From: an uncultured Anaerolineales bacterium
GTDB lineage: Bacteria; Chloroflexota; Anaerolineae; Anaerolineales; UBA11858
DNA: 64,000 bases
Direction of reading: 5' to 3'
NCBI GenBank assembly: GCA_964406305.1
Contig: CAYORF010000002.1
Span: 130-64,129, forward strand
Shown here: piece by piece, positions 1,556 through 55,830 of the stretch
Layout: each line of letters begins with the position of its first letter
Position numbering within the stretch: the stretch's first letter is position 1
Translations under genes and position numbers: made by a program
Notes under the pieces: generated by a model
Database searches by the model: none
Told to the model about the DNA's origin: nothing
The model's input: the letters and a program-made list of their open reading frames with translations, nothing else

Positions 1556-1572
1556 AAATAAATATTCCTACT
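1556..1572. repeat. 17-bp direct repeat AAATAAATATTCCTACT; right copy of the target-site duplication
   Basis: Identical to 142..158. Its last T is the first T of the TTGACA -35 hexamer. Confidence 0.8.
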
Positions 1573-1600
1573 TGACAGATGTTGATTAAGTCCATATAAT
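1572..1600 (+). promoter_or_regulatory. Sigma-70 consensus promoter of the ilv-leu operon
   Basis: TTGACA (1572-1577), a 17-nt spacer, then TATAAT (1595-1600). Confidence 0.6.
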
Positions 1601-1650
1601 CCTGCCTAATATCTAAACATTAATTTTTTAAAAAGTTCCACAAAACAACA

Positions 1651-1773
1651 ATGATCAATACTGTATTGTCCTTCATCCTTATTCTAATTAGCCTTTTGGT
1701 TCTTATCCTGATTTTGGGGATTGCGAACCCCGTATCCGGTTGGGCATTTAGGAAGGTGAAGAACAAGAAGTAA
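1651..1773 (+). CDS. ilv-leu leader peptide (40 codons, Ile/Leu/Val rich)
   Basis: Encodes MINTVLSFILILISLLVLILILGIANPVSGWAFRKVKNKK. There are 7 Ile, 8 Leu and 4 Val; 16 of the 20 codons at residues 5-24 are I/L/V. A terminator follows. The ORF is below the size cutoff of the ORF track. Confidence 0.7.
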   Translation: MINTVLSFILILISLLVLILILGIANPVSGWAFRKVKNKK

Positions 1774-1802
1774 CAGAACACATTCCAAAGTTTTTTTGAA
1801 AA

Positions 1803-1834
1803 GTCGCCCATCCGGGCGGCTTTTTTTGTTTTAG
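1803..1834 (+). terminator. Intrinsic terminator (attenuator) directly upstream of the ilvD RBS
   Basis: Stem GTCGCCC / loop ATCC / stem GGGCGGC, followed by TTTTTTTGTTTT. The upstream segment CCGGTTGGGC (1736-1745) is 9/10 complementary to GCCCATCCGG (1806-1815), giving an alternative antiterminator. Confidence 0.75.
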
Positions 1835-1842
1835 GAGCAAAC

Positions 1843-3510
1843 ATGAGATCGGATGAAATCAAAAAAGGTTACGAACGTGCACCTCACCGCTCTTTATTGA
1901 GGGCGACCGGCAACGTCAGCGAGGAGGATTTTGGTAAACCTTTCATTGCTGTGGTCAATTCCTACGTCGATATCATCCCTGGTCATGCGCACTTGCAGGA
2001 ATTCGGAAAAGTGATCAAGGATGCTGTCCGGGCAGCAGGAGCTGTTCCTTTTGAGTTCAACACCATCGGTGTGGATGATGGAATTGCCATGGGGCACTAT
2101 GGTATGAAATTTAGCCTGCCTTCCCGTGAGCTGATCGCCGACAGTGTCGAAACCATGATCCAGGCCCATCAATTCGACGGCATGATCTGCATTCCTAATT
2201 GCGACAAGATCGTTCCGGGTATGGTTATGGCAGCGCTGAGAGTGGATGTCCCTGCGATCTTCATATCTGGTGGGCCAATGAAAGCAGGTATTATGCCTGA
2301 CGGAGAGATAGTAGATCTGGTATCGGTTTTCGAGGGAGTGGGTGCCTATCAGGCAGGGTACATCTCTGAAGATCAATTACAAACTCTGGAAAGATATGCC
2401 TGTCCCGGGTGTGGTTCCTGTTCAGGTTTATTTACCGCCAATTCCATGAATTGTCTCCTGGAGATTTTGGGCTTAGCCTTGCCATTCAATGGGACTGCCC
2501 TGGCTGGATCAATAGAGCGGGAAAAACTTGCTCTGGATGCCGCTGGGAGGATCATGGATCTGGTAAACCAGGACCTCACTCCCCGCAAGATAGTCACAAA
2601 AGACGCCATTGACGACGCATTTGCGCTTGATATGGCATTTGGCGGCAGCACAAATACCGTTCTGCATACGCTAGCCTTTGCATTCGAAGCTGGTATTGAC
2701 TATGACCTTAAACGCATTAATCAGATTGCCGGGGAAGTACCCCACCTTTGTAAGATCAGTCCATCAGGACCCTGGCATATGGAAGACCTTCACACCGCCG
2801 GAGGAGTCCCCGCCATCGTAAATGAACTTGCCAAAGGAGGGTTTCGTGTCCATCTGGACCGCCCAACGGTGGCCGGGACAACTCTAGGCAGTTCGATCAA
2901 TGACCAGACAATTTTGAATCCAGAAGTAATTCGGCCCCATACAAATCCACACAGCACTAAAGGCGGTCTGGCGATCCTGTTTGGAAATCTTGCGCCGGAT
3001 GGAAGTGTGGTCAAGTCCGGGGGTGTTGCTCCAGAAATGCGTCGCCATAAAGGACCTGCCCGAATTTATGAAAGTCAAGATGAAGCTATGCAAGGCATCC
3101 TTAACCACGAAGTGCAGCCAGGAGATGTGGTGGTCATTCGGTATGAAGGACCAAAAGGAGGTCCGGGAATGCAGGAAATGCTCTCACCTACCTCTGCAAT
3201 TGTCGGAATGGGCTTAGGAGAAAGCGTTGCTCTGATCACAGATGGCCGTTTTTCGGGTGGAACTCGGGGAGCTTGTATTGGTCATATCAGCCCGGAAGCA
3301 GCTGCCCGGGGTCCTATTGCTGCTCTCCAAAATGGAGATGAGATCCTAATCGACCTTGCCAGCAATACCCTGGAAGTGTCCCTGAGTGAGGAAGAGTTGA
3401 AAAACCGTATTAGTGCCTTACCCCAATATGCACCATCAACGGACAGTTCGTGGCTGCGTCGCTATTCACGGATGGTGACCAGTGCTAACCAGGGAGCAGT
3501 CTTAATTTAA
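1843..3510 (+). CDS. ilvD: Dihydroxy-acid dehydratase
   Basis: 555 aa. Contains [19 protein letters not shown] and CDKIVPGM motifs; full-length IlvD/Edd family. The SD AGGAG lies 5 nt upstream. Confidence 0.95.
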
Positions 3511-3553
3511 TCGTTTTTTAATTGATGTATTTTCCTGTCCAAAGGAGAGATTT

Positions 3554-5275
3554 ATGAAGGAATTATCCGGAGCAGAAATTTTATGGGAAAGCCTTGTCGC
3601 TGAAGGAGTGGAAGTTATATTTGGCTATCCAGGCGGCGCTATCATGCCGGTCTATGATGTGATGTTGAAATATCCGGTCCACCATGTGCTTACCCGCCAC
3701 GAGCAAGGTGCTGCTCATATGGCAGACGCCTATGCCAGAACATCAGATAAAGTTGGAGTAGCTTTGGCTACTTCAGGGCCAGGAGCCACCAACCTTGTCA
3801 CTGGGATTGCCACGGCAATGTTGGATTCTTCTCCGCTGATCTGCATAACCGGTCAGGTTCATAGCAATTTGCTGGGAAAAGATGCCTTTCAGGAAATTGA
3901 TGTAACGGGTATCACCTTACCGATCACAAAACATAATTTCCTGATCACCAGGGCTGATGAGGTTGCTGAGGTTGTGCATAAGGCCTTCCATATCGCCCGG
4001 AGTGGTCGGCCTGGCCCGGTCTTAATCGATTTTTGTAAAGATGCTCAAATTCAAATAGCTCAATATCATGAACCAGATCCATCACTGCCCATTTCTCTGC
4101 CCGGATACAGTTCCCCGGTCCATGCACCTGAGGATGATTTGAAAACCGCTGCTGAAATGATTGAAAAAGCTGAGCAGCCTGTTATCCTGGCCGGACAAGG
4201 GGTATTGATGTCAGACGGCATGGAAATGCTGGAATTCTTTGCCACCAAAACCCAGACACCCGTAGCCATGACATTGCTTGGATTAGGCGCCTTGCCCACC
4301 TCTCACCCCCTGTCTCTGGGGATGATGGGCATGCATGGAGAGGCTTATTGCAATCAGGCAATCCAGAATGCTGATTTGCTATTGGCATTTGGCATGCGAT
4401 TTGATGATAGGGTCACGGGAAATCTGCGCACTTACGCACCCCGGGCTAGAAAAATTCACCTGGATATAGATCCCACAGAAATCAATAAAAATATTGACAT
4501 AGATCTATCGTTGCTGGGAGATCTCAAAACAGTTCTCTCTGACCTGATACCCCTGGTAGATGAATACGATCATGATGCCTGGAAAATTCAGATCAACGGC
4601 TGGAAAAAAGAAACCCGGGAAAGGAGCATTCTTTCCTGGCAGGATGATGGAAAATTGAGGACAGCCCGGGTGATCCATGATCTATGGGAAATTACAGAAG
4701 GTGATGCTATCGTGGCAACTGGAGTAGGCCAGCATCAGATGTGGGCTGCCCAGTATTACACTTTTGAAAAACCATTCCGCCTGATCACATCCGGAGGAGC
4801 AGGGACAATGGGTTTTGGTCTCCCAGCCGCCCTGGGTGCCTGGTTCGCTCACCCTGAGGAGGAAATCTGGTTAATTGATGGGGACGGAGGTTTTCAGATG
4901 ACACAAAGTGAACTTTCCACGGCGGTTCAGGAAAATGCGAATATAAAAATAGCGATCATGAATAACGGTTTCTTGGGCATGGTACGGCAGTGGCAGGAAT
5001 TCTTCTTTGATAAACGCTACGCTTCTACCCCGATCACAGGACCAGACTTTGTGAAACTTGCAGACGCGCATGGAATACCCGCAAGGAGAATCCAGGATCC
5101 CGGAGAAGTATTCTCAGCCATAGAGTTCGCTCAGCAGACACCCGGCCCGGTCCTTTTGGACTTTATTGTAGAAAAAGAAGAATCCGTCTACCCAATGGTA
5201 CCAACGGGTGCCGCCCTAGATGAAATGATCAGACGTCCAATATTCAAAAAAGATTCAGCAGTGAAGTCCAAATAA
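3554..5275 (+). CDS. ilvB: Acetolactate synthase large subunit (ThDP-dependent)
   Basis: 573 aa. Contains GYPGGAIMPVYD and the ThDP motif GDGGFQMT...NNG. Followed by the small subunit gene. Confidence 0.95.
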   Translation: MKELSGAEILWESLVAEGVEVIFGYPGGAIMPVYDVMLKYPVHHVLTRHEQGAAHMADAYARTSDKVGVALATSGPGATNLVTGIATAMLDSSPLICITGQVHSNLLGKDAFQEIDVTGITLPITKHNFLITRADEVAEVVHKAFHIARSGRPGPVLIDFCKDAQIQIAQYHEPDPSLPISLPGYSSPVHAPEDDLKTAAEMIEKAEQPVILAGQGVLMSDGMEMLEFFATKTQTPVAMTLLGLGALPTSHPLSLGMMGMHGEAYCNQAIQNADLLLAFGMRFDDRVTGNLRTYAPRARKIHLDIDPTEINKNIDIDLSLLGDLKTVLSDLIPLVDEYDHDAWKIQINGWKKETRERSILSWQDDGKLRTARVIHDLWEITEGDAIVATGVGQHQMWAAQYYTFEKPFRLITSGGAGTMGFGLPAALGAWFAHPEEEIWLIDGDGGFQMTQSELSTAVQENANIKIAIMNNGFLGMVRQWQEFFFDKRYASTPITGPDFVKLADAHGIPARRIQDPGEVFSAIEFAQQTPGPVLLDFIVEKEESVYPMVPTGAALDEMIRRPIFKKDSAVKSK

Positions 5276-5317
5276 CGGCTTCCCGTTCACTGTGCCCGAA
5301 CCACCACAGGAGTATTT

Positions 5318-5848
5318 ATGCAGCAGATATTATTTGCCCTAGTAGAAAACAAACCGGGAGTCCTCAATAGAGTATCTTCCCTGTTTAGACGAAGAAAATT
5401 CAATATTGAATCGCTTAATGTTGGACGGACAGAAAAAACCGATATATCCCGAATGACAATTGTGCTCGAAAACGAGGCAGTAGATGCCCGAACAGTTGAG
5501 GCAAATCTCTACAAATTGGTCAATGTTATCGATGTCCAGGATCTGACCAATCAACCCGCTGTTGTGCGGGACCTGGCATTGATCAAGGTAAAGGCAACAC
5601 CAGAGACCCGAGGCGAAGTGGCCAGTCTGGCAGAGATCTTTCGCGCAAATATTGTCGATGTTGCGCCCGATTCAGTCGTCGTTGAGATCGCAGGCACTGA
5701 AGATAAGATTGAAAGCCTGGTAGAGCTGTTGCGGCCTATAGGTATAGAGGAATTGGTACGCACTGGTCAGGTCGCTATGATGAGAGGGGCATCAGATGGA
5801 AAAAGATACACGCCTGGCGCAAACGGAAAAACTAAAATCACTGCTTAA
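5318..5848 (+). CDS. ilvN: Acetolactate synthase small (regulatory, ACT) subunit
   Basis: 176 aa. The N-terminus VENKPGVLNRVSSLFRRRKFNIESL is typical of IlvN/IlvH. Confidence 0.93.
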   Translation: MQQILFALVENKPGVLNRVSSLFRRRKFNIESLNVGRTEKTDISRMTIVLENEAVDARTVEANLYKLVNVIDVQDLTNQPAVVRDLALIKVKATPETRGEVASLAEIFRANIVDVAPDSVVVEIAGTEDKIESLVELLRPIGIEELVRTGQVAMMRGASDGKRYTPGANGKTKITA

Positions 5849-5869
5849 TTGGAATTGGAAGGATTAAAT

Positions 5870-6883
5870 ATGGCCACAATATATTATGAAAAAGATGCAA
5901 ACCCCGAACTGATCAAGGACAAAAAAGTTGCTGTGATTGGATATGGTTCCCAGGGTCACGCTCACAGCCTGAACTTACATGACAGTGGAGTCGACGTCCG
6001 GGTCGGACTGCCAGAAGGCAGCCGTTCCAAATCCAAGGCTGAAGCCGCTGGCTTAAAGGTTGTCCCAATCGCAGAAGCTGCAAAATGGGCTGATACGATC
6101 ATGGTTCTTATTCCAGATACTTCCCAACCAAGCGTATATAAATCAGATATTGAGCCTCATTTGAGACCGGGCAAAACTTTGATGTTCGCCCATGGATTTA
6201 ATATTCGTTTCGGAACGATCAAACCTCCTGCTGATGTAGATGTCAGTATGGTAGCTCCAAAAGCGCCAGGACATAGAGTAAGGGAAGTCTTTCAGGAAGG
6301 TGGAGGAACACCCTCTCTGCTTGCAGTCCATCAGGATGCCAGTGGCGAAGCTTATCAAAATGCCATTGCCTATTCCTGGGGTATCGGAGCCACTCGGGCA
6401 GGTGTATTAAAGACAACCTTCGCAGAAGAAACAGAGACGGATTTATTTGGAGAACAGGCAGTTTTGTGTGGAGGAGTATCCGCCCTGGTCAAAAGTGGAT
6501 TTGAGACGTTGGTCGAAGCCGGGTACCAACCAGAAGTAGCCTATTTCGAATGTATGCATGAGTTAAAGCTGATTGTGGACCTGATGTACAGAGGTGGATT
6601 GAATTTTATGCGCTACTCTGTCTCGGATACTGCAGAACATGGTGATTATTATGCGGGTTCAAAAGTGATCACAGATCAGACTCGGGAAAATATGCGTCAG
6701 CTGCTCAAGGATATACAGACCGGAACCTATGCAGAAGAATGGATCGAAGAAAACGAGAACGGCAGGCCCTGGTTCAACGAACAGCGAAAGAAAGATCAGG
6801 ACCATCCCATAGAGGTTGTCGGTAGAAAGCTGCGCAGCATGATGCCTTTCATCGACTCCGTAACAATAAAACCTGGTGATTAA
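5870..6883 (+). CDS. ilvC: Ketol-acid reductoisomerase (class I)
   Basis: Starts [10 protein letters not shown] and contains [14 protein letters not shown] trimmed the start from the TTG at 5849 to the ATG at 5870, which lies behind GGAAGGA. Confidence 0.93.
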
Positions 6884-6923
6884 GGATATACGCGTAAGAT
6901 AAGCAACAGTTACAGGAGAATTA

Positions 6924-8564
6924 ATGACTGATCAATATATCCGGTTCTTTGATACAACCTTACGGGATGGAGAACAATCCCCTGGTGCCTCACTGACTTC
7001 TGCAGAGAAGCTGGAAATTGCCCGTGCATTAGCCCGCCTGGGAGTGGATGTGATCGAAGCTGGTTTTCCAGCAGCTTCCCCCGATGATTTCCAGGGGGTT
7101 CAACGCATAGCTCAGGATGTCGGCATTTCGAAAGGTAATGAATATAAAACACCATCCATTTGCGGACTAGCCCGGGCATTAAAAAGTGATATCGATACAG
7201 CTTGGAAAGCAATTAAACCGGCTGCAAATCCACGGATCCATACCTTTCTCGCTACCTCTCCCGTTCATATGCAGTACAAACTGAGCCTGGAACCAGAGGA
7301 AGTTGTGATTCAGGTTAGCGAAATGGTTGCATATGCCCGATCCCTTTGTGATGATGTGGAATTTTCTCCTGAAGACGCCACCCGGTCTGATCCTGATTTT
7401 CTTTATCAAGTTTTGGAGGCAGCAATTCAAGCCGGTGCGACGACACTGAATATTCCTGATACTGTCGGTTATGCCATACCTGAGGAATTCAATAATCTTA
7501 TTGCCGGTATTATCGTCAATACCCCAGGTATTGATGAAGTAATTCTCTCTGTTCACTGCCATAATGATCTCGGATTAGCAACAGCAAATACCCTTGCTGG
7601 CATCCAAGCCGGTGCCAGACAGGTTGAAGTTACTATGAACGGTATTGGAGAGAGAGCAGGCAACACATCTCTGGAAGAAATTGCCATGGCATTACATACT
7701 CGTCGGGCAATGTATAACTTTGAAAACAGGATCGACCCTTCTCAGATCACACGGGTGAGCCGGATGGTCTCGAATTATACCGGAATCCCGATCCAACCTA
7801 ATAAAGCCATCGTTGGTGAAAATGCGTTTGCTCATGAAGCAGGAATCCATCAGGATGGCATGCTCAAGAATAAGAAAACTTACGAAATTATGTTGCCTGA
7901 AACCGTTGGCCTCCAGCGCTCTCGTCTGGTTTTGGGGAAACATTCTGGCCGGCATGCCCTGCAGATCCGCCTGGAAGAATTGGGATACAGCCTTGAGCAG
8001 GAAGAGTTATCCGACATCTTTAAAAGCTTCAAAGTACTGGCTGACAAGAAAAAAACCATCACTGATGCAGATCTTGAAGCGCTGGTTGAGGATCAGGTTT
8101 ACCGTGCTGAAGAGATCTTCAGCCTGGACGGTTTGCAGGTATCCTGTGGGACGATGGGACTTCCCACTGCAACTGTTCGTCTGTCTGACAGGGATGGCGA
8201 GATCCATATTCAAGCCTGTGTAGGAACTGGACCAGTCGATGCAGCCTTCAAAGCAGTAGATTTGATCGTTCAGGTCTCGAATACCTTGCTTGAATTCAGC
8301 ATCAATGCAGTCACTGAAGGCATAGACGCTATCGGTGAAGTAACCGTACGACTGGAACCCAAAAATGGTTCGATTCCAGAACGCACATCACCTCAAAGCG
8401 GCCTTACTCATAAAAGATCTTTCGGAGGATATGGAGCGGACACAGACATTATTGTCGCCTGCGTCAAAGCTTATCTTTCTGGCTTGAACAAATTGCTTAA
8501 TGCTCGTGAATATACTCAGGCATCGGAACTGGGAGTCAAAAGACCAGAAAAAATCAAACTATAA
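6924..8564 (+). CDS. leuA: 2-isopropylmalate synthase (long form with C-terminal regulatory domain)
   Basis: 546 aa. Contains [13 protein letters not shown] and [16 protein letters not shown]. Confidence 0.93.
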
Positions 8565-8621
8565 ACTCAGGCAGCAGCTATTATCAATAACCGGAATTAT
8601 TTTCCCTTAAGGAGGAAAGAA

Positions 8622-8831
8622 ATGACGAACCAAACATCAGATCGATCATCAAAATCATTCCCAGATCCTCAGGCATCTAAGCAAAAACGGAGTCCAATGG
8701 TTCAAAAACAGGATCGCGAGGTTAAGAAACAGGGAAAATACCATGTTCCAGAACGGATGGAAACCTTTCCCAAGACCAGAACCTTTCCGAAAAAATGGGA
8801 TTTCTCAAGTTTTTCAAAAGATTCAAAATGA
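8622..8831 (+). CDS. Hypothetical small basic protein (69 aa), translationally coupled to leuC
   Basis: The strongest SD in the region (AAGGAGG) lies 6 nt upstream of the ATG. The stop overlaps the leuC start (ATGA at 8828-8831). The protein is low complexity and rich in K/S/P/Q, with no family recognised. Confidence 0.45.
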   Translation: MTNQTSDRSSKSFPDPQASKQKRSPMVQKQDREVKKQGKYHVPERMETFPKTRTFPKKWDFSSFSKDSK

Positions 8832-10237
8832 ATTCTCCGAAGACGCTATTCGACAAAATCTGGGAAACTCATCTTGTATCTGAAGAAGACGGATCCCCTG
8901 CCGTCCTGTTTATAGATCTGCACTTAGTCCATGAAGTGACCTCTCCGCAGGCTTTTAACGGTTTGAGGGAAAAAGGATTGGGGGTTCGGTCGCCCAATCG
9001 AACACTGGCAACCATGGACCATTCGACTCCTACTATAGATCTGAAAAAGTCATCAGTAGACCAGTCTGGTCAGCTCCAAATTGAACAAATGGAAGCTAAC
9101 TGCCGGGAGTTTAGCATACCACTATACGATCTTGATCATTCCCAAAGGGGTATCGTTCATGTAATAGGTCCAGAATTGGGATTAACTCAGCCCGGGATGA
9201 CAATTGTCTGTGGTGACAGTCATACATCAACACATGGAGCGTTCGGTGCCCTTGCTTTTGGTATTGGGACCAGTGAAGTCGAACACGTATTGGCAACCCA
9301 GAGTTTACTGCAGGAACAGCCAAAAACCATGTTGGTCGAATTTACCGGTGAACTCCCCAGTGGAGTGACCTCTAAAGACCTGATCTTAGCCCTGATCAAG
9401 GAAATCGGAATTGGAGGCGGAGTTGGATTTGTGATTGAATACGGGGGAAATGTTGTTTGCTCCCTTAATATGGACGAACGAATGACCCTCTGTAATATGA
9501 GCATCGAAGCTGGTGCCCGGGCTGGTTTAATTGCTCCAGACGAGATTACCTTCACATATTTAAAAGAGAGGGCATTTGCGCCGAAGGACCTGGACTGGGA
9601 GAGATCCTTGAGTCGATGGCAATCATTGAAATCTGATCCAGGTGCAGTTTTTGATAAAAAGATCCAGATCGATATTGGCAACTTATCTCCTATGATCACC
9701 TATGGCACCAATCCTGAGATGGGCGCGCCAATTGACTCTGTAATCCCTGATCCTTCCGAAGAATCAGACCCTGTTCGGCAGGCTGCCCTAGAAAAAGCCC
9801 TTGATTATATGGGTCTCTCGCCTGGAGAACCTTTGGTCGGACAGAAAGTCGATGTGGTTTTCCTGGGCAGCTGCACCAACGGACGGATGAGTGACTTGCG
9901 GGCAGCAGCTTCAATTCTAAAGAATCAAAAGATTGCACCTGGAATAAAAATGCTTGTAGTTCCCGGATCAGAAAGTGTCCGGCGCCAGGCAGAACAAGAA
10001 GGCCTCAACAAGGTATTCCTTGACGCCGGGGCGGAATGGCGCTATTCAGGCTGTAGTATGTGTCTGGCAATGAATGGCGATCAATTATCTCCAGGCCAAT
10101 ATGCAGTCAGCACCAGCAATCGAAATTTTGAAGGACGGCAGGGACCAGGTGGACGGACATTTTTGGCCAGTCCGCTTACAGCTGCTGCATCGGCTTTAGC
10201 CGGCAGGATCGCTGATCCCCGGGATCATATTAATTAA
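8828..10237 (+). CDS. leuC: 3-isopropylmalate dehydratase large subunit
   Basis: The MNSPKTLFDKIWETHLV start matches the LeuC N-terminus. Aconitase-family Cys motifs are present (GDSHT, GSCTNGR, CSMCLAMN). Confidence 0.92.
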   Translation: MNSPKTLFDKIWETHLVSEEDGSPAVLFIDLHLVHEVTSPQAFNGLREKGLGVRSPNRTLATMDHSTPTIDLKKSSVDQSGQLQIEQMEANCREFSIPLYDLDHSQRGIVHVIGPELGLTQPGMTIVCGDSHTSTHGAFGALAFGIGTSEVEHVLATQSLLQEQPKTMLVEFTGELPSGVTSKDLILALIKEIGIGGGVGFVIEYGGNVVCSLNMDERMTLCNMSIEAGARAGLIAPDEITFTYLKERAFAPKDLDWERSLSRWQSLKSDPGAVFDKKIQIDIGNLSPMITYGTNPEMGAPIDSVIPDPSEESDPVRQAALEKALDYMGLSPGEPLVGQKVDVVFLGSCTNGRMSDLRAAASILKNQKIAPGIKMLVVPGSESVRRQAEQEGLNKVFLDAGAEWRYSGCSMCLAMNGDQLSPGQYAVSTSNRNFEGRQGPGGRTFLASPLTAAASALAGRIADPRDHIN

Positions 10238-10259
10238 AATCGATCAAAATAAGGACATT

Positions 10260-10895
10260 ATGCAACATATTCAAATCATCAAGTCAAAAATGATCCCACT
10301 ATTGCAGAATGATATTGATACAGATCAGATCATTCCCGCCAGGTATCTCAAGGTCATCGATAAAAATGGTTTGGCAGACGGGTTATTCTCTGGATGGAGA
10401 TATCTTGCTACTGGTGAGCAAAACACCGAATTTCCTCTCAATCAGCCAATATATAAAGGTGCAGAGGTGCTTCTGGCTGGTGATAATTTTGGCTGTGGAT
10501 CATCCCGTGAACACGCTCCCTGGGCCCTGCTTCAATGGGGAATTCGCGCAATAATCAGCACCTCATTCGCAGATATATTTCGCAATAATGCTTACAAAAA
10601 TGGCCTACTGCCCATCGAAGTTAATCCTGCCACCCATCAGCGGATCTCAAATGCAATTTCCACTGACCCAAACCTCCTGATGATCATTGATCTGCCCGCT
10701 CAGAAAATCAAGTTATCAGATGGATATTCAGATGAATTTGAGATCGATCCATTCAGTAAAAATTGCCTGGTCAATGGTATTGACCAGTTAGGATATTTGC
10801 TTCAGTTCTCAGATCAGATTGACAATTTTGAAAAAGAAATGGAGTCGGCGGGAATTTTCCGAATAACTACCACGGAAGAAATATCAGCTGGATAA
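10260..10895 (+). CDS. leuD: 3-isopropylmalate dehydratase small subunit
   Basis: 211 aa. Contains NFGCGSSREHAPWAL, the aconitase swivel-domain signature. Confidence 0.92.
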   Translation: MQHIQIIKSKMIPLLQNDIDTDQIIPARYLKVIDKNGLADGLFSGWRYLATGEQNTEFPLNQPIYKGAEVLLAGDNFGCGSSREHAPWALLQWGIRAIISTSFADIFRNNAYKNGLLPIEVNPATHQRISNAISTDPNLLMIIDLPAQKIKLSDGYSDEFEIDPFSKNCLVNGIDQLGYLLQFSDQIDNFEKEMESAGIFRITTTEEISAG

Positions 10896-10994
10896 GGTAG
10901 ATTATCAGGTAAATAATCGGCGAGAAAATAACTCCTAAAAGGTTGAATGATTAATGGTTAGAACTTTACAGGTTTTCAATGGAGAACATAAAGC

Positions 10995-12554
10995 ATGAGT
11001 GAAATATCTATTTACGACACAACATTGAGGGATGGCACCCAGAGCGAAGGGATATCCTTATCTGTCAACGATAAACTGAAGATAACTCGACGCCTCGATG
11101 AATTTGGCGTTCATTACATTGAAGGAGGTTGGCCCGGATCCAATCCCAAGGATGCTGAATTTTTTAATCGGGCCAAAACTCTATCATTCAAAAATGCCAA
11201 ACTGGCGGCTTTTGGATCCACGCGAAGAAAAAACACCGAACCTGATCGGGACCCGAATTTGATTGCTCTGCTGGACGCAGGTACCCCGGTCGTCACTTTG
11301 GTTGGCAAAAGTTGGGAACTTCATGTCAGGGACATACTCGAGACCAGCCTGGAAGAGAATTTGTTGATGATCGAAGAGAGTACAGTTTACTTGAAATCCA
11401 AAGGAAAGGAAGTCATTTATGATGCCGAACACTTTTTCGATGGTTATAAGACAGATCCCGAATATGCTGTTCAAACTTTGATCGCCGCCGATAAAGGTGG
11501 TGCCAATGTCCTGGTGCTTTGTGATACTAACGGGGGCTGTTTACCTTGGGAGATCGAGGAGATCATCACAGCTGTGGGGAAAATCACTGGTAAACCGCTG
11601 GGTATCCATACTCATGATGACGGTGGAAATAGTGTGGCGAATTCCCTTGCGGGAGTCCGTGGCGGCGCTGTACATGTCCAGGGCACGATCAACGGCTATG
11701 GTGAGCGGGTAGGAAATGCCAATTTGTGTTCAGTGATACCCAATCTTCAGATCAAGATGGGGTATTCATGCATTGATCCTGAAAATCTTGCCAGGCTAAC
11801 TGATCTCTCTCATTTTGTGGATGAAGTAGCCAATCAACCCCATGACTCTCGCCTTCCCTATGTTGGTAAAAAAGCATTCAGCCATAAAGGCGGCATCCAC
11901 GTTGCAGCGATTCTCAAGAATGAAGATTCCTATCAGCACATCAATCCTGACCTGGTAGGAAATCAACGCCAGACTTTGATCTCCGATCTTTCCGGGCGCG
12001 GGAATGTGATGGATAAAGCCCAACAGTTTGGGTTGGACGTGGATCATCAACAAGCCAAGGATATTGTCACCCAGATCAAAGACCTGGAGTCACAGGGGTT
12101 TACATTTGAAAGCGCTGAAGCTTCTGTGAACCTGATGGTGCGCAGGATGAAACCCGGCTATAAACGGCCCTTTGAACTAATTGATTTTATGACTGTGGTT
12201 GAACATCGCGAGGGACGAGGTGTTGTTTCCGAGGCGACTGTAAAGGTCCGGGTCGGCGATCAGATTTTCCATACAGCCGCTGATGGCAATGGTCCTGTAA
12301 ATGCCCTGGATGCTGCTTTACGAAAGGCATTGATAGATGTCTATCCCCAGTTAAAGAATATTAGATTGGATGATTATAAAGTGCGTATTCTCGATAGCGA
12401 TCAGGGAACCGCAGCGCATGTTCGGGTTTTGATTGACACCCAGAATGGAACAAGTCGCTGGAGCACAGTTGGCGCCAGTACAAATATCATTGATGCCAGT
12501 TGGCGAGCCCTGGTAGATAGCATGGAATATGCCCTGCTTGATGATCCTGAATAA
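10995..12554 (+). CDS. cimA: (R)-citramalate synthase-type LeuA paralog (threonine-independent isoleucine route)
   Basis: 519 aa. Contains IYDTTLRDGTQSEGISLSVNDKL and HTHDDGGNSVANSLAG, resembling the CimA group rather than the LeuA at 6924. No ilvA lies in the cluster. Confidence 0.75.
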   Translation: MSEISIYDTTLRDGTQSEGISLSVNDKLKITRRLDEFGVHYIEGGWPGSNPKDAEFFNRAKTLSFKNAKLAAFGSTRRKNTEPDRDPNLIALLDAGTPVVTLVGKSWELHVRDILETSLEENLLMIEESTVYLKSKGKEVIYDAEHFFDGYKTDPEYAVQTLIAADKGGANVLVLCDTNGGCLPWEIEEIITAVGKITGKPLGIHTHDDGGNSVANSLAGVRGGAVHVQGTINGYGERVGNANLCSVIPNLQIKMGYSCIDPENLARLTDLSHFVDEVANQPHDSRLPYVGKKAFSHKGGIHVAAILKNEDSYQHINPDLVGNQRQTLISDLSGRGNVMDKAQQFGLDVDHQQAKDIVTQIKDLESQGFTFESAEASVNLMVRRMKPGYKRPFELIDFMTVVEHREGRGVVSEATVKVRVGDQIFHTAADGNGPVNALDAALRKALIDVYPQLKNIRLDDYKVRILDSDQGTAAHVRVLIDTQNGTSRWSTVGASTNIIDASWRALVDSMEYALLDDPE

Positions 12555-12588
12555 AATGGAACAAATAATTTAGTTAAAGGAAGCATAA

Positions 12589-13677
12589 ATGATAACAAAT
12601 ATTGTGTGCCTTCCAGGAGATGGCATTGGCACCGAAGTAACTGCAGCCGCCCAAAAGATTCTGGAAGTAATTGGAGCGAAATACGGGTATTCATTCCAGC
12701 TGGAAGAACATTTGATAGGTGGAGCTGCTATTGATGATAGCGGCATTGCTTTACCAGAAAAAACCCTGGAAGCTTGTTTAAAATCAGATGCCGTTTTGCT
12801 AGGAGCGGTTGGTGGTCCAAAATGGGATGATCCTCTGGCAAAAGTACGTCCAGAACAAGGCCTGCTCGGGCTGCGAAAAGGATTGGGCTTATTTGCCAAT
12901 TTACGTCCTGTCCAGCCCCACCCCGATTTGTTAGATGCTTCTCCATTAAAAACTGAATACTTAGAAAATGTAGATTTATTGGTAGTGCGTGAGCTAACGG
13001 GCGGGATCTATTTTGGACGTCCCCAGGGACGAAATCAAACCGAGAACGGGGAACAGGCTGTTGATACCATGAGCTACACTACTGGTGAAGTTCAGCGGGT
13101 GGCTGAATTGGCCTTCCAGCTGGCTGGAAATCGCAAAAACAAAGTTACCTCCGTTGATAAAGCTAATGTTCTGGAAACCTCACGATTATGGCGGCAGGTG
13201 GTTGGCCAGGTGGCTGAATCATACCCTGAAGTGGTGTTGGAAAATATGCTGGTTGATTCAGCGGCCATGCATCTGATCTCCCGCCCATCATCTTTTGATG
13301 TGTTATTGACAACCAATATGTTTGGAGACATCCTGACCGATGAATCTTCAATCTTGGTTGGATCCATGGGAAATCTGCCCTCCGCCTCACTCGGAGAAGG
13401 TACTAACCAGCATGGAAAACAACGCGGGATGTATGAACCTATTCATGGTTCAGCTCCTGATATTGCTGGAAAAGGCATAGCCAACCCAATTGGTGCGATC
13501 CTCTCTGCTGCGCTGCTGCTCCGCTATTCACTTGGGCTTGAAGAAGCAGCCCAGGCAGTGGAAAACGCCGTTGATTCCACATTAAAAGCAGGTAATCGCA
13601 CGATTGACCTGGTTCCTGGAAATGAAAAATCCCTCAATACAGCGGAGATATTGGAAGTAATTATTAGTTATCTTTAA
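12589..13677 (+). CDS. leuB: 3-isopropylmalate dehydrogenase
   Basis: 362 aa. Contains [10 protein letters not shown] and [10 protein letters not shown] motifs. Confidence 0.93.
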
Positions 13678-13791
13678 CTAATAGATAAATTTACTGATTA
13701 TCTGATGGAGATCGTAATAGAGAAATTGATCCTTGTATTTCAATCAAAAGGGCGACCTTATGAAATCAATATTATTTTGGAGGACCATTAA

Positions 13792-14733
13792 ATGAGTTTC
13801 AGATCTGAATATGTCTGGCTAAACGGAAAACTTCTCCCTTACGATGATGCTTTGATCCATGTGAATACGAGTTCATTGCATTATGGGTACGGTGTTTTTG
13901 AGGGGATTCGTGCCTATCAAACAGACCAAGGACCTGCTGTATTTCGACTCAGAGATCATTTTGAACGATTCTTGAATTCAGCTCTTATTCTGGGTTTGCA
14001 GGACTCCCCGTACAGCGTCGAAGAATTAACCGAGGCAACCCACCAAGTTATCCGTGAGAATAAGTATCAAGCATGTTATATTCGGCCGTTATTATTCTTT
14101 GCAGAATCTCTTGATTTGAACTTAGATCATGCCACACCGCAGGTAAGCATTACAGCCTGGGAGTGGGGATCTTACCTTGGAGAAGGGAGTTTGGAAAAAG
14201 GTGTCCATATGGGTGTTTCCTCTTTAACAAGACATCACATGAATGTGAATTTCACCAAGGCAAAAATCACCGGGAATTATGCCAATTCGGTCATCGCCAA
14301 AACAGATGCTGTCAGAAATGGTTTTGATGAAGCGATTATGCTGGACCCGGAAGGACATGTTGCCGAATGCACAGGAGAGAATCTTTTCCTGGTTAAGAAA
14401 GGGGTCATATATACCCCCCCGAAGGCCGCGATCCTGGAAGGAATTACACGGGATTCGTTGATGATCTTGGCTGGGGACCTAGGTTACAAAGTGGTAGAGG
14501 AAACAATCTCCCGTGACCAACTATACATTGCGGACGAGGTATTTGCCTGTGGTACGGCTGCTGAACTTACACCTGTTACTAAAATTGATCATCGCATAAT
14601 TGGGCATGGAAAAATGGGCCCAGTGACAAACAAACTCCAAAAATTATTTTTTGAGACAGTTGGAGGAAAGGGAGAACGATCCGCAGAATGGCTGGATTAT
14701 GTGAAGTTAGCAACTCCTGAAGGAACCAAATGA
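13792..14733 (+). CDS. ilvE: Branched-chain amino-acid aminotransferase (fold type IV)
   Basis: 313 aa. Contains LHYGYGVFEGIRAY and GITRDS motifs. Confidence 0.92.
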   Translation: MSFRSEYVWLNGKLLPYDDALIHVNTSSLHYGYGVFEGIRAYQTDQGPAVFRLRDHFERFLNSALILGLQDSPYSVEELTEATHQVIRENKYQACYIRPLLFFAESLDLNLDHATPQVSITAWEWGSYLGEGSLEKGVHMGVSSLTRHHMNVNFTKAKITGNYANSVIAKTDAVRNGFDEAIMLDPEGHVAECTGENLFLVKKGVIYTPPKAAILEGITRDSLMILAGDLGYKVVEETISRDQLYIADEVFACGTAAELTPVTKIDHRIIGHGKMGPVTNKLQKLFFETVGGKGERSAEWLDYVKLATPEGTK

Positions 14734-15572
14734 CCAACTCCAGAGTGGCGTTCCAGGGAGAACCAGGGGCTTATAGTGAACTGGCTGCCATGGAATATTT
14801 TGGTGAGATGGCAAACAGCTTACCATTTGAGTCCTTTAGAGACGTCTTTGCTGCTGTCGAGACCGGAAAAGCCGAATATGGGATCCTGCCTATTGAGAAT
14901 TCACTCGCTGGCAGCATCCATCAGAATTATGATTTACTGCTGGAGAATGATCTTCTAATTATAGGAGAGTACCTTCTAAGGGTCTCACATTGCTTGTTGT
15001 CATTACCCGGAACGAAGTTGGAAGATATTGAACGGGTTCGATCCCATCCTCAGGCCTTGGCTCAATGTGCAAGCAATCTGAACCAGATGGCCGTTGATCC
15101 TGTGATCGCCAACGACACAGCCGGCAGTGCCCGCCTGTTAGCTGAAAACAAAGAAACCGGGACTGCTGTTCTGGCATCCCGACGAGCCGCTGAAGTATAT
15201 GGCCTGGAGATTTTGCGGGAAGATATGGAAGATAACAAGGAGAATTACACCCGGTTTGTGATTTTGGCTGGAATTGATTCAATTTTAAAAAGCGTTTTGC
15301 CCGGAGATGAATCCAAGACCTCGATTGTATTTAATTTAGACCATGAACCCGGGACGTTATACAAAGCGTTAAGTGTGTTTGCACTGGCTGAAATTGATCT
15401 CACAAAAATAGAATCCAGACCCATCGCAGGAAAACCCTGGCAGTATATGTTCTATATTGATTTTGCTGAGAAAGAAAATTCCCGGGTGGGAAAACAGGCA
15501 CTGGACAAGTTAAGTAAATTTACGCCTTTCTTGAAAGTATTGGGGTCATATCCCAGGCACCGGATTAAATGA
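14730..15572 (+). CDS. pheA: Prephenate dehydratase with C-terminal ACT domain
   Basis: 280 aa. Contains VAFQGEPGAYSE, TRF and ESRP motifs. The start overlaps the ilvE stop (ATGA). Confidence 0.9.
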   Translation: MTNSRVAFQGEPGAYSELAAMEYFGEMANSLPFESFRDVFAAVETGKAEYGILPIENSLAGSIHQNYDLLLENDLLIIGEYLLRVSHCLLSLPGTKLEDIERVRSHPQALAQCASNLNQMAVDPVIANDTAGSARLLAENKETGTAVLASRRAAEVYGLEILREDMEDNKENYTRFVILAGIDSILKSVLPGDESKTSIVFNLDHEPGTLYKALSVFALAEIDLTKIESRPIAGKPWQYMFYIDFAEKENSRVGKQALDKLSKFTPFLKVLGSYPRHRIK

Positions 15573-31044: not shown

Positions 31045-31320
31045 TTTCTCCTTAAACAAAAACCACGTCCAAAAGGGACGCGGCTCTTTTCGCGCGGTTC
31101 CACCCAACTTCAATGACGATCACTCGTCAGGCACTCTTTTAAGGATAACGGGTTGCCCCGGAGCCCCATACTCTCATTAACAATGATTTAGGGAACCCAC
31201 TCATGGATGGTTTTCACCTTTGCCTTCACTATAAGGGTTTTCAGCCGGTGACCCTCATTCTCTGGAGTTATCTCAAAGGATACTCGTTCCACTCAACGCT
31301 TTTTCATATTGTGATATTAG
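31045..31320 (-). promoter_or_regulatory. T-box riboswitch leader; probable Thr (ACC) specifier
   Basis: On the minus-strand RNA, Stem I is formed by GGAAC/GTTCC and CCUUUG/CAAAGG, with an AGUA element, an AGAGA box and the specifier-loop string UGAAAACCA. The T-box motif is UUGGGUGGAACCGCG (complement of 31091-31107). The terminator is CCGCGUCC-CUUUU-GGACGUGG followed by UUUUUGUUU. Confidence 0.8.
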
Positions 31321-55433: not shown

Positions 55434-55830
55434 CAACAGGTTATTAAAAATAAATCAACTGTGAAGAGGGAATAGTAAGCGGCGAAACGCTGGTTCAGAG
55501 AGCAAGGGGTTGGTGAAAACCTTGCCCAGACGCCACCGCTGAATGGACCTCAGAGTTGCAGGGCGAACAGGTTCCTAGAAGAAAATGACCAAAATAGCCC
55601 GAGCCGGGGTTGCTACCGTTACCAAAGCATTGGTTCCGTTGCGTGATAACTTTATTTCCGGTTGGAAATAAAAGAACCTATCATACTTCCGGATCAAGAA
55701 TAAGTGAGGCTGGTTTCTACATTTCCCGTTGTTTCACCAACGGGATCTTGTTGTTAACATCAAAGACAGCCTACACAGGGTGGCACCGCGGGAATCGCCT
55801 CTCGTCCCTGAGACTTGAGGCGATTTTAAT
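55434..55830 (+). promoter_or_regulatory. T-box riboswitch leader, Trp (UGG) specifier
   Basis: It has an AGAGA box (55496-55500) and a GGUGAAAA distal loop. The specifier string is GAA-UGG-A, with UGG at 55544-55546. The T-box motif is GGGUGGCACCGCGG (55778-55791). The terminator is AATCGCCTC...GAGGCGATT followed by TTAATTT (55793-55830). Confidence 0.85.

Follow-up and report, generated by a model that had tools for sequence, protein, structure and literature searches.

A putative ribosome-mediated attenuator for branched-chain amino acids, conserved upstream of ilvD in Anaerolineales

Results

A leader ORF, competing RNA segments and a terminator lie upstream of ilvD

The window analyzed here is a stretch of 64,000 nucleotides from an uncultured Anaerolineales bacterium, an organism known from metagenome-assembled genomes alone. 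It carries a run of 12 genes from ilvD to pheA (Table 1), an arrangement that had been proposed from the letters of the DNA in an earlier, sequence-only reading, and for which NCBIfam and Pfam confirmed the gene assignments; orf69 is a 69-codon ORF between leuA and leuC. Judged by gene spacing, the 12 genes probably form one operon transcribed as a single RNA. Upstream of ilvD lie a promoter, a leader ORF, a set of segments predicted to pair with each other, and an intrinsic terminator. The transcription start was placed near 1607 from the position of the promoter, and is thus a predicted site.

Table 1. Positions of the leader elements, the downstream genes and the T-boxes in the window
Feature	Position	Strand	Basis and remarks
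Sigma-70-type promoter, TTGACA-17-TATAAT	1572..1600	+	Consensus match 12/12
5′ untranslated region (predicted start)	1607..1650	+	Sequence; A/U-rich, without Shine-Dalgarno sequence
Leader ORF, 40 codons, MINTVLSFILILISLLVLILILGIANPVSGWAFRKVKNKK	1651..1773	+	ATG 1651, TAA 1771-1773
Regulatory codon run, residues 5-24	1663..1722	+	Sequence; Ile/Leu/Val 16/20
Segment 1, 5′ strand of the anti-antiterminator, within the regulatory codons	1666..1694	+	Minimum-energy fold, partner 1742-1766; 1:2 helix, -30.9 kcal/mol
Hairpin H, within the ORF, 1698-1709 with 1717-1729	1698..1729	+	Covariation, conserved; caps the 1:2 stem
Segment 2, partner of segment 1 (1742-1766) or segment 3 (1736-1758)	1736..1766	+	Folding
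Segment 3, 1779-1791 with 1746-1758 and 1806-1815 with 1736-1745	1779..1815	+	Antiterminator; 2:3 helix, -21.3 kcal/mol
Intrinsic terminator, 12-bp stem 1798-1809/1814-1825, loop AUCC, T-run 1821-1832	1798..1832	+	3:4 helix, -18.4 kcal/mol
ilvD-ilvB-ilvN-ilvC-leuA-orf69-leuC-leuD-cimA-leuB-ilvE-pheA	1843..15572	+	NCBIfam and Pfam
Two T-boxes	31071-31305 and 55452-55812		Rfam scan

The leader ORF, with its run of Ile, Leu, and Val codons, is present as the sequence-only reading had described it. The same is true of the terminator, whose core consists of GTCGCCC (1803-1809), ATCC, GGGCGGC (1814-1820), and T7 (1821-1827); it starts 29 nt past the stop codon, and its stem could be extended to 12 pairs. 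The T-run adjoins the Shine-Dalgarno (SD) sequence of ilvD, AGGAG at 1833-1837, which is followed by the ATG at 1843. Because pheA closes the operon, phenylalanine was also considered as a signal, and was set aside since the peptide holds only two Phe codons. The promoter, the 1:2 hairpin and hairpin H had not figured in the earlier account.

The earlier proposal for an antiterminator was a pairing of CCGGTTGGGC (1736-1745) with GCCCATCCGG (1806-1815). This pairing is real, being 9/10 complementary with a single U-U mismatch, but the predicted antiterminator is larger than these 10 bp and adds the pairing of 1746-1758 with 1779-1791. The leader stop codon sits in the antiterminator loop, 26 nt beyond the antiterminator strand. 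Folding under alternative constraints, which had been suggested as a check, agreed with the model in part: with a ribosome footprint masked at codon 10 or 15, the antiterminator came out as the preferred fold for the stage at which segment 4 is not yet present, but with a 28-nt footprint masked at codon 20 or 24, the 1:2 helix re-formed and closed around the ribosome in silico. We discounted this closure on steric grounds only, thermodynamic masking being indecisive on this point. Relative to shuffled versions of the single sequence, the fold of the whole leader gave z = -3.15, and the 1:2 and 2:3 helices taken alone were not significant (z = -1.25 and -1.15). Support for the leader as a real feature is comparative, and comes from its conservation in about 70 related loci.

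Reading frame and helices are conserved in distinct parts of the leader

Homologues were sought with covariance models over 151 genomes of the order and 151 genomes of the class. At the level of the order, matches were found in 45/151 genomes, representing 33 of 71 genera and 12 of 18 families, and at the level of the class in 64/151 genomes. Two weak class-level matches (L065 and L070), having neither an Ile/Leu/Val ORF nor a downstream branched-chain gene, were judged to be false. The alignments used were those of the covariance model, as plain MAFFT misplaced the leader of G028, the most distant member; two of the 45 order-level leaders (L044 and L056), for which automatic hairpin picking failed, were excluded from the position statistics.

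Conservation of the ORF had been named as a check on the sequence-only reading, and all 45 order homologues keep an intact leader ORF, the terminator (a GC-rich hairpin with a T-run behind it) and the competing pairing. A strong promoter is found at the same position in most of them. The peptide, 40 residues here, ranges from 29 to 43 across the family. The distance from the ATG to hairpin H ranges from 30 to 47 nt, with lengths congruent modulo 3 in 42/45 homologues, and H itself measures 14 to 32 nt, with the same congruence in 41/45; no such 3-nt periodicity was seen in the 45 homologues for the segments downstream of H. The Ile/Leu/Val share is 61% in frame, with one stop codon, versus 27% and 11% in the other two frames, with 63 and 58 stops. 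At least 10 Ile, Leu, or Val residues fall within some 12-residue window in 41/45 homologues, and Ile, Leu, and Val make up 83-92% of the core, to which Ala, Gly, and Phe jointly contribute about 11%. In L015 and in the second copy of L003 the C-terminal part of the peptide is frameshifted while its nucleotides are retained, and thus it is the RNA, not the protein, that is conserved there.

The helices were assessed over the 45 sequences by the share of alignment cells that can pair. The long 1:2 hairpin forms in nearly every homologue: for 1:2 together with H, 79.4% of cells are paired, compared to 35-56% when the strands are slid, double changes occur in 15 of 24 pairs, and the covariation score was reached by none of 500 shuffles. 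Hairpin H considered alone has 90.7% of cells paired, and both sides have changed in 8 of its 12 pairs. For the antiterminator columns the figure is 76.1%, compared to 28-53% when slid; covariation here is modest (0.146 vs 0.124 in shuffles, reached by 10/500), and the GGG/CCC core is invariant. Segment 2 prefers the terminator arm of its own leader over the arms of other leaders in 41/45 cases, with duplex energies of -12 to -28 kcal/mol in the individual leaders. In 42/45, the competing strand, which binds the 5′ arm of the terminator, ends 4-33 nt ahead of the stop codon. Several genomes have an extra small ORF or a second complete attenuator between leader and ilvD, and where leaders occur in tandem each copy has its own terminator.

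The leader accompanies branched-chain genes and is new to Rfam

The gene next to the leader is ilvD in 42 of the 43 order-level loci that could be tested, the remaining locus having a cimA-like gene and pheA; class-level loci have ilvD, ilvB, or leuC in this place. Within the genus, ilvD is found in only 6 of 37 genomes, and these are exactly the six that have the leader. Across the order, a whole-genome scan matched the leader in 39 of 76 ilvD-bearing genomes, and when 20 of the ilvD-bearing negatives were rechecked by unfiltered search, a match immediately before ilvD appeared in 13. None of these 20 relatives had a T-box upstream of ilvD.

No Rfam family was assigned to the leader, either at gathering thresholds or at E up to 10. 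The sub-threshold matches AaHKsRNA20, Phe_leader, and rnk_pseudo aligned to the terminator only, Phe_leader (RF01859) reaching 26.9 against a threshold of 55, and Leu_leader (RF00512) gave 19.1 bits against a threshold of 50, on the opposite strand. The T-box model (RF00230) did not match within 1400-2000, even with E relaxed to 10. The earlier remark that T-boxes stand beside the leader holds to the extent that the window contains two real ones, but these are located outside the ilv cluster, at distances of about 30 and 54 kb from the leader. A literature search for this leader family in Chloroflexi or Anaerolineae found no report; Lopatovskaya et al. 2010 (cited in PMC4833913) was outside that search.

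One locus, L064, has a homologous scaffold upstream of metG (model R2, E = 1e-7 to 2e-7), in which the leader peptide reads M-Q-M-W-M in place of the LVLILI of ilv leaders. Across the order, about 20 of 30 metG genes are preceded by Met-rich leader ORFs and terminators.

The leader ORF has no Shine-Dalgarno sequence

An SD-like motif at 5-14 nt from the leader ATG was found in only 2 of the 45 homologues and not in the leader of the window; in contrast, such a motif precedes 13 of 17 neighboring structural genes. As the lack of an SD sequence is family-wide, we infer that initiation must be SD-independent. It may proceed by way of the A/U-rich leader, or in near-leaderless fashion in some members, where the ATG follows the -10 hexamer by only 9-10 nt. 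Translation of the leader ORF in vivo is made plausible by the constraint on its frame, which stays open in all homologues, whereas the lack of an SD sequence speaks against it.

Discussion

A model for attenuation

The leader has what characterizes an attenuator: a short upstream ORF rich in codons for the end-products of the downstream operon, an intrinsic terminator between this ORF and the first structural gene, an antiterminator (2:3) and a terminator (3:4) that are mutually exclusive, and a segment 1 that lies across the regulatory codons and keeps segment 2 sequestered, so that a stalled ribosome would free it. The comparative evidence supports the core of the sequence-only reading, an Ile/Leu/Val attenuator in which antiterminator and terminator exclude each other, and we consider it very probable that the leader is a ribosome-mediated transcription attenuator that senses charged Ile-, Leu-, and Val-tRNA. 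The operon would then most likely be switched on only when branched-chain amino acids run short.

In the model we propose, transcription would begin from the promoter and a ribosome would enter the leader ORF at 1651. Given ample isoleucine, leucine, and valine, the ribosome would pass the codon run and segment 2 and reach the stop codon at 1771, and behind it hairpin H and the 1:2 helix would re-form. A ribosome at the stop codon had been thought to mask 1736-1745 directly; its footprint, at about 1756-1783 with the A site on 1771, does not agree with this, and would cover the apical helix of the antiterminator, the sequestering being done by the 1:2 hairpin capped by H instead. With 1:2 re-formed and the apical helix covered, segment 3 would be free for segment 4, so that the terminator forms and transcription stops ahead of ilvD. 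Since the stop codon lies beyond the antiterminator strand, termination in times of plenty would need fast re-formation of 1:2, which is a kinetic assumption of the model. A shortage of any one of the charged tRNAs for Ile, Leu, or Val would stall the ribosome in codons 5-24, where it occupies segment 1 and H, so that segment 2 stays free. Segment 2 could then pair with segment 3 as it emerges, taking up the 5′ arm of the terminator, and with the antiterminator formed RNA polymerase would enter ilvD and the operon. Coupling of ribosome and polymerase, pausing, and the response to amino-acid supply are presumed in this model.

Other explanations for the conserved leader

The ORF could encode a genuine small membrane protein, or a peptide like a type I toxin, with a function of its own, the hairpins then being an ordinary terminator. 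The peptide does resemble a single transmembrane helix followed by RKVKNKK, and leader peptides can act in trans, as for peTrpL (PMC7298713). However, the constraint on the frame ends after H, and two homologues carry a frameshift in the C-terminal third, with its nucleotides conserved. Transmembrane helices have roughly 35-40% Ile, Leu, and Val, and the core of the leader peptide is well above this usual range. Nothing significant was found for the peptide in Pfam (best E = 0.5, below the cut-off), its ORF has no SD sequence, and each tandem copy has a terminator of its own. The ilv element was found only before branched-chain genes and not in the ilvD-less genomes of the genus, the corresponding ORF before metG is Met-rich, and full-length conservation independent of the neighboring gene, which would mark a type I toxin or small membrane protein, was not found. 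We regard this explanation as very unlikely, and assign the same low likelihood to a structured RNA switch for a metabolite, a tRNA or a protein (of riboswitch, T-box-like or TRAP-like type) in which the ORF is incidental. The conservation of H and the 1:2 stem with covariation would suit such a switch, T-boxes are in use elsewhere in the window, and in some Firmicutes ilv-leu genes are under the control of ppGpp riboswitches. An incidental ORF, however, would not keep both ATG and frame in 42/45 homologues despite 3-nt indels, would not be enriched in Ile, Leu, and Val in one specific frame, and would not turn to Met codons before metG; in addition, Rfam, with T-box and ykkC types included, gave no match at gathering thresholds, and in the alignment the conserved helices come without the large conserved unpaired core that is typical of ligand pockets.

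Least probable of all, in our judgment, is that the leader ORF acts mainly on translation or on Rho-dependent polarity, for example by reinitiation at ilvD. Leader genes near structural genes have been proposed to raise translation by reinitiation (PMC4833913), and the T-run of the terminator adjoins the SD sequence of ilvD. Against this, the stop codon lies 69 nt before the ilvD ATG with the 12-bp GC-rich terminator hairpin in between, several genomes place a small ORF or a second full attenuator between the leader and ilvD, and every homologue has a canonical hairpin with T-run together with a strand that competes for its 5′ arm.

Relation to known leaders

Known examples of multivalent Ile/Leu/Val attenuation are ilvL (32 aa), which precedes ilvGMEDA in E. 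coli and Salmonella, and ivbL, which precedes ilvBN. As in these, a short ORF here is packed with codons for all three branched-chain amino acids and has a basic or polar tail, the 1:2, 2:3, 3:4 logic is the same, and an intrinsic terminator stands just before the first biosynthetic gene. A large number of regulatory codons, as found here, is consistent with the design for high sensitivity analyzed in PMC1183508. Unlike ilvL and ivbL, with which it has no detectable homology in sequence or structure, the leader described here has no SD sequence, has an additional conserved hairpin made of regulatory codons within the ORF, and has an ORF that spans all of segment 2 with its stop codon in the antiterminator loop. 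As it is found in a different phylum, its origin was probably independent of theirs.

The sequence-only reading had named Proteobacteria and a few Actinobacteria as the groups in which ribosome-mediated attenuation is well known. This is too narrow, as attenuator peptides upstream of ilvD are also established in Firmicutes, namely in Listeria monocytogenes (Rli60; PMC5864092) and in S. aureus (PMC5794164), where mutations of start codon, RBS, and terminator and the branched-chain response provide genetic support. There, as here, the attenuator directly precedes ilvD as the first gene of an ilv-leu operon; however, those peptides are of 13 and 26 aa with a recognizable RBS and act with CodY, whereas the present one is of 40 aa, SD-less, and known from sequence alone. 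The ilvBNC attenuator of C. glutamicum, identified largely by comparative genomics, resembles the present leader in its conserved ORF of branched-chain codons, its multi-hairpin leader and its non-proteobacterial phylum, but stands upstream of ilvB, follows a three-hairpin model and has the ilvB-II motif, whereas the leader here precedes ilvD and belongs to another RNA family (PMC11857589, PMC10272879). With T-box leaders it shares a signal from tRNA charging and a choice between terminator and antiterminator; those, however, bind uncharged tRNA directly, without translation, and T-box features are absent here.

Implications

While the mechanism is that of the textbook, the leader family is new to Rfam and to the literature searched. 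A comparative-genomics survey pointed to a gamma-proteobacterial origin for the amino-acid attenuator motifs in Rfam (PMC3766115). The present RNA family, which is large and conserved, would add Chloroflexota to the phyla with leader-peptide attenuation; about 40% of the Anaerolineae genomes sampled have a detectable member, as do most of the ilvD-bearing genomes among them. It would give annotators a new cis-regulatory model, one that marks a regulated operon in mostly uncultured organisms, and would place ribosome-sensing and tRNA-sensing (T-box) leaders together in one genome. The SD-less ORF, the hairpin within the ORF, the tandem copies and the Met version before metG may serve as natural variants for studying how such a switch is tuned.

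Further, and only as a tentative proposal that we hold to be somewhat less likely than its opposite, the leader could be one instance of a modular scaffold that is re-aimed by a swap of codons, serving a lineage-wide amino-acid regulon in Anaerolineae and depending on SD-less or leaderless starts. The retargetable scaffold would comprise the four segments and the hairpin made of the regulatory codons themselves, aimed by Ile, Leu, and Val codons before ilv and leu genes and by Met codons before metG in L064. In the SD-less ORF, the sensing ribosome would load on the nascent 5′ end, coupling translation to transcription from the first nucleotides. If so, the leader would represent a variant form of attenuation, one relying on leaderless or SD-less initiation. 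Finally, ilvD was found in just 6 of the 37 genomes from the genus; should this be due to real loss and not to gaps in the assemblies, most members of the genus would be auxotrophic for branched-chain amino acids, a point of relevance to cross-feeding in their communities.

The predicted leader-attenuator locus in the window

The sequence-only reading had placed an Ile/Leu/Val-rich leader ORF, an overlapping antiterminator and terminator, and a 12-gene operon in this part of the window, and each of these elements was recovered. The ORF carries 16 Ile/Leu/Val among residues 5–24; a terminator scan gave a 12-bp stem (1798–1825) followed by a T-run; and CCGGTTGGGC (1736–1745) is complementary to GCCCATCCGG (1806–1815) at 9/10 positions. 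NCBIfam and Pfam assign the operon as ilvD, ilvB, ilvN, ilvC, leuA, a 69-codon ORF, leuC, leuD, cimA, leuB, ilvE and pheA. The 69-codon ORF (8622–8831), which is Lys-rich and has no Pfam match, is preceded by the strongest Shine-Dalgarno (SD) sequence in the operon, AAGGAGG.

Position 1572, from which the earlier reading had started the feature, coincides with the start of a perfect TTGACA-17-TATAAT promoter. An insertion sequence (within 142–1577) flanked by a 17-bp duplication (142–158 and 1555–1571) lies directly upstream of the –35 hexamer and leaves the promoter of the ilv leader intact; its transposase gives a weak rve_3 match (E = 5.5e-4). A near-identical contig from a metagenome, Ga0307990_1006671 (L023 1-145), carries this insertion in the same position, so the insertion is not an assembly artefact. 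When the decamer that follows the –10 hexamer (1601–1610, CCTGCCTAAT) was compared with the homologous positions in L002, L003, L004, L005, L012, L015, L021 and L024, it proved conserved among genus-level leaders, with the consensus CCnGCCnAAT. These bases fall outside the ORF and outside the helices, and may represent a discriminator or start-site element or, alternatively, a site bound by a protein.

The window's leader ORF has no SD sequence before it. Across the family, an SD-like motif lies within 5–14 nt of the leader ATG in only 2/45 cases; by contrast, 13/17 nearby structural genes have one upstream. In the window, the 5′ untranslated region of ~44 nt is rich in A/U and remains single-stranded in the fold; in some relatives the leader ATG is only 9–10 nt past the –10 hexamer. 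The obvious reading is that initiation would be SD-independent or near-leaderless.

Features of the leader in the window, and loci of variants in relatives
Feature	Position or loci	Remarks	Fold energy (kcal/mol)
Leader ORF	ATG 1651 to TAA 1771-1773	encodes MINTVLSFILILISLLVLILILGIANPVSGWAFRKVKNKK	
1:2 stem (anti-antiterminator)	1666-1694 with 1742-1766	5′ strand inside regulatory codons	-30.9 (fold of 1651-1768, including H)
Hairpin H	1698-1709 with 1717-1729	at tip of 1:2; made of Ile/Leu/Val codons	within the -30.9 of 1:2
2:3 antiterminator	1736-1745 with 1806-1815, and 1746-1758 with 1779-1791	first pairing is that of the sequence-only reading	-21.3
3:4 terminator	1798-1809 with 1814-1825		-18.4
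ilvD start signals	AGGAG 1833-1837; ATG 1843		
Tandem attenuators	L003 (G012), L014/L036 (G160), L018, L052 (G127), L056 (G089), L068 (G087), L136 (G091)		
Met-rich metG leaders	L064, L089, L094, L096, L097, L102, L107, L109, L110, L112, L113, L115, L117	terminator after each, just upstream of metG	
A/C-rich repeats	L003 ~1690-1850 of reverse strand, L052, L089, L093		

Conservation of the RNA structure

The leader layout consists of the four classical segments and one extra hairpin, H, with the leader stop codon in the antiterminator loop. The whole leader of the window folds better than shuffled sequences (z = –3.15), much of which is due to the terminator; in single-sequence shuffles the 1:2 region alone gives z = –1.25 and the 2:3 region alone z = –1.15. 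On the window sequence alone, the feature stands only weakly beyond chance, so that it is the comparison with relatives that carries the case. In a DNA search of related genomes, four others of the genus and one from another family carried the leader. Apart from one false positive, all hits of a pattern scan over public genomes and metagenomes came from Anaerolineales and Chloroflexota metagenome-assembled genomes. A covariance model built from 18 sequences (R1) matches in 45/151 genomes sampled from the order, covering 33/71 genera and 12/18 families; a second model (R2) matches in 64/151 genomes sampled from the class (46/101 genera).

When each homologue was folded from its ATG through segment 2, the same long hairpin formed in nearly all, from strands that are often quite different in sequence, e.g., UUGUCGUCCU with AGGAUGGCAA. 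In the model alignment (n = 45), 79.4% of cells in 1:2 plus H are paired, compared to 35–56% with a slid partner, two-sided changes occur in 15/24 pairs, and the covariation score was reached by 0/500 shuffles; H alone is 90.7% paired (n = 45). For the antiterminator, 76.1% of cells are paired versus 28–53% when slid; an invariant GGG/CCC core keeps its covariation modest. Visible compensatory changes include UUUG/CAAA to UGUG/CACA in the L014/L018 group, CGUUU/AAACG to CGGUUUU/AAACCG in L005, and GGGCAG/CUGCCC to GGGYNGGC/GCCGCCC in several families. Independently of any alignment, the best duplex between the segment 2 region and the 5′ arm plus loop of the leader's own terminator has an energy of –12 to –28 kcal/mol; it is more stable than the mean for terminators of other leaders in 41/45 and ends 4–33 nt before the stop codon in 42/45. 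A GC-rich hairpin and then a T-run is found in 45/45 homologues.

The leader ORF as a putative sensor

An ATG-initiated ORF of 29–43 codons occupies the same place in 45/45 order-level homologues, so that the proposed ORF is conserved. The ATG-to-H distance (30–47 nt) is congruent modulo 3 in 42/45, as is the length of H (14–32 nt) in 41/45; in the two segments 3′ of the antiterminator strand, lengths are not periodic in this way (19/18/8 and 17/15/13). In the stretch between codon 2 and the antiterminator strand, the leader frame encodes 61% Ile/Leu/Val (I 21%, L 28%, V 11%) and has 1 stop in 1033 codons; the other two frames encode 27% and 11%, with 63 and 58 stops. Every homologous peptide contains all three of these residues, and 41/45 have at least 10 of them within some 12 residues. 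The protein sequence of the C-terminal third is not conserved: deletions of 1–2 nt shift the frame in L015 and in the second L003 copy, where the nucleotides TGGGYAGTCAGGA... are kept despite the frame change. This pattern is that expected of a sensor ORF.

R2 also matches a leader upstream of metG, the methionyl-tRNA synthetase gene, in another genome (L064; E = 1e-7 to 2e-7). This metG leader is a homologue of the ilv scaffold and shares its order of promoter, ORF, hairpin and terminator; its peptide MTTNYIYNFSLIAMFSLLAVYMQMWMQNPITRLGAVIRMVTKE has M-Q-M-W-M at the position of LVLILI in the ilv leaders. Of 30 order genomes scanned upstream of metG, ~20 combine a short Met-rich ORF with a promoter and a terminator, for example MKKKMMPEMMSMMMRIVRL and MNITLTLMWMAVMMAMVMMPMAMMRLAAKRTAARVRKRM, the latter with 12 Met; the window's own genome carries one on another contig (G000 C29, locus L096 ~1290-1470), encoding (V)NFLVLVACLAMMMAMPKGRV.... 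Leader-peptide attenuation of an aminoacyl-tRNA synthetase gene is uncommon.

With Met codons before metG and Ile/Leu/Val codons before ilv, codon enrichment in the leaders thus matches the amino acid of the gene that follows. Such a match is predicted by ribosome sensing, and neither a metabolite-binding RNA nor a membrane peptide predicts it. Pfam gave no significant match for the peptide (best E = 0.5, below cut-off). The frame-specific Ile/Leu/Val content and the unconserved C-terminal third fit a sensor ORF rather than a functional membrane peptide.

Downstream genes, co-occurrence and variants

The gene directly downstream is ilvD in 42/43 testable order-level loci, the remaining one being a cimA-like gene followed by pheA; class-level loci have ilvD, ilvB or leuC next. 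At L006 (G028:C20:20962-21138), a second Ile/Leu/Val leader copy precedes a separate unit of a cimA-like gene and pheA, which would, as in the window, subject pheA to branched-chain instead of aromatic control. Within the window's genus, ilvD is present in only 6/37 genomes, exactly the six with the leader, and a seventh model match in the genus sits upstream of metG. The leader-plus-operon unit thereby appears patchily inherited, and most genus members may be branched-chain amino-acid auxotrophs; 18/37 genus genomes (among G001-G052) are at least 90% complete.

Across the order, ilvD is listed in 76/151 genomes, 39 of which were matched by the whole-genome R1 scan. Six further R1 matches lie in genomes without a listed ilvD: two are leaders adjoining metG (G093, G118), three are contig-end or diverged cases and one is a partial terminator match. 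The scan uses strict filters, and an unfiltered search of 650 nt upstream of ilvD in 20 'negative' genomes gave 13 with a match at E ≤ 2e-4 on the ilvD strand and three with weak matches; no T-box or other Rfam family was found in these regions. Most ilvD genes of the order thus come with the leader element, which was not found in genomes that lack branched-chain genes.

In some relatives ilvD is preceded by a tandem pair of complete Ile/Leu/Val attenuators, both copies having an ORF and a terminator of their own; in L018 and L014 the second copy has its own promoter too. The window has one copy only. An extra ORF of 44–66 codons, absent from the window, lies between leader terminator and ilvD in L039, L044, L045, L049 and L061; three of these share a C-terminal motif ...FDxYN[NDG]-stop, and those of L039 and L049 instead have ...PxFPYRPV... 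in common. Short A/C-rich direct repeats (e.g., CCAGTTTCCCAATTTACCA, ACCAATTACCCAATT, CTGACTCCCTGAC) fill spacers past attenuator terminators or before promoters in several relatives.

The proposed switch

Folding under alternative constraints was performed by masking a 28-nt ribosome footprint in silico. Placing the A site at codon 10 or 15, at a stage before segment 4 exists, gave a best fold that includes the antiterminator. For a ribosome at the stop codon, 1:2, H and the terminator are all part of the best full-length fold. The switch is therefore read as in the classical attenuation model. A ribosome stalled on the Ile/Leu/Val run would keep segment 1 and H occupied, so that segment 2 would capture segment 3 and polymerase would read through. 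An unimpeded ribosome would cross segment 2 to the stop, covering the apical helix of the antiterminator; behind it H and 1:2 would re-form, allowing the terminator to form. The earlier suggestion that a ribosome at the stop masks 1736–1745 does not hold, as the footprint there (~1756–1783) does not cover this segment. We infer the transcription start, translation in vivo and the response itself, as well as a pause synchronising ribosome and polymerase, for which H is a candidate. With these corrections of detail, the sequence elements and the comparative and fold evidence support the leader-attenuator reading, and by this evidence the predicted attenuator is a real feature.

Relation to known attenuators

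The enterobacterial multivalent ilvGMEDA and ilvBN leaders are attenuators, and are functionally closest to the window leader. Likewise close are the attenuators next to ilvD in Listeria (Rli60, 13 aa; PMC5864092) and in S. aureus (26 aa; PMC5794164), which have both been tested genetically, and that of Corynebacterium ilvBNC (PMC11857589, PMC10272879). Judged at the level of sequence, the window leader has the defining features of leader-peptide attenuators. Its family differs from these known examples in lacking an SD sequence, in the hairpin within the ORF, in a leader ORF that reads through segment 2, and in the complete tandem copies of some relatives. Rfam was searched and holds no family for the element, so that the window leader belongs to no catalogued RNA family. 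One survey indicates that Rfam attenuator motifs may stem from gamma-proteobacteria, and lists Chloroflexi only among T-box users (PMC3766115). Full-text searches on leader-peptide attenuation in Chloroflexi or Anaerolineae returned no description; a 2010 survey may hold relevant predictions. The mechanism is a textbook one; the family that would use it is large and uncatalogued, in a phylum where such attenuation is not documented.
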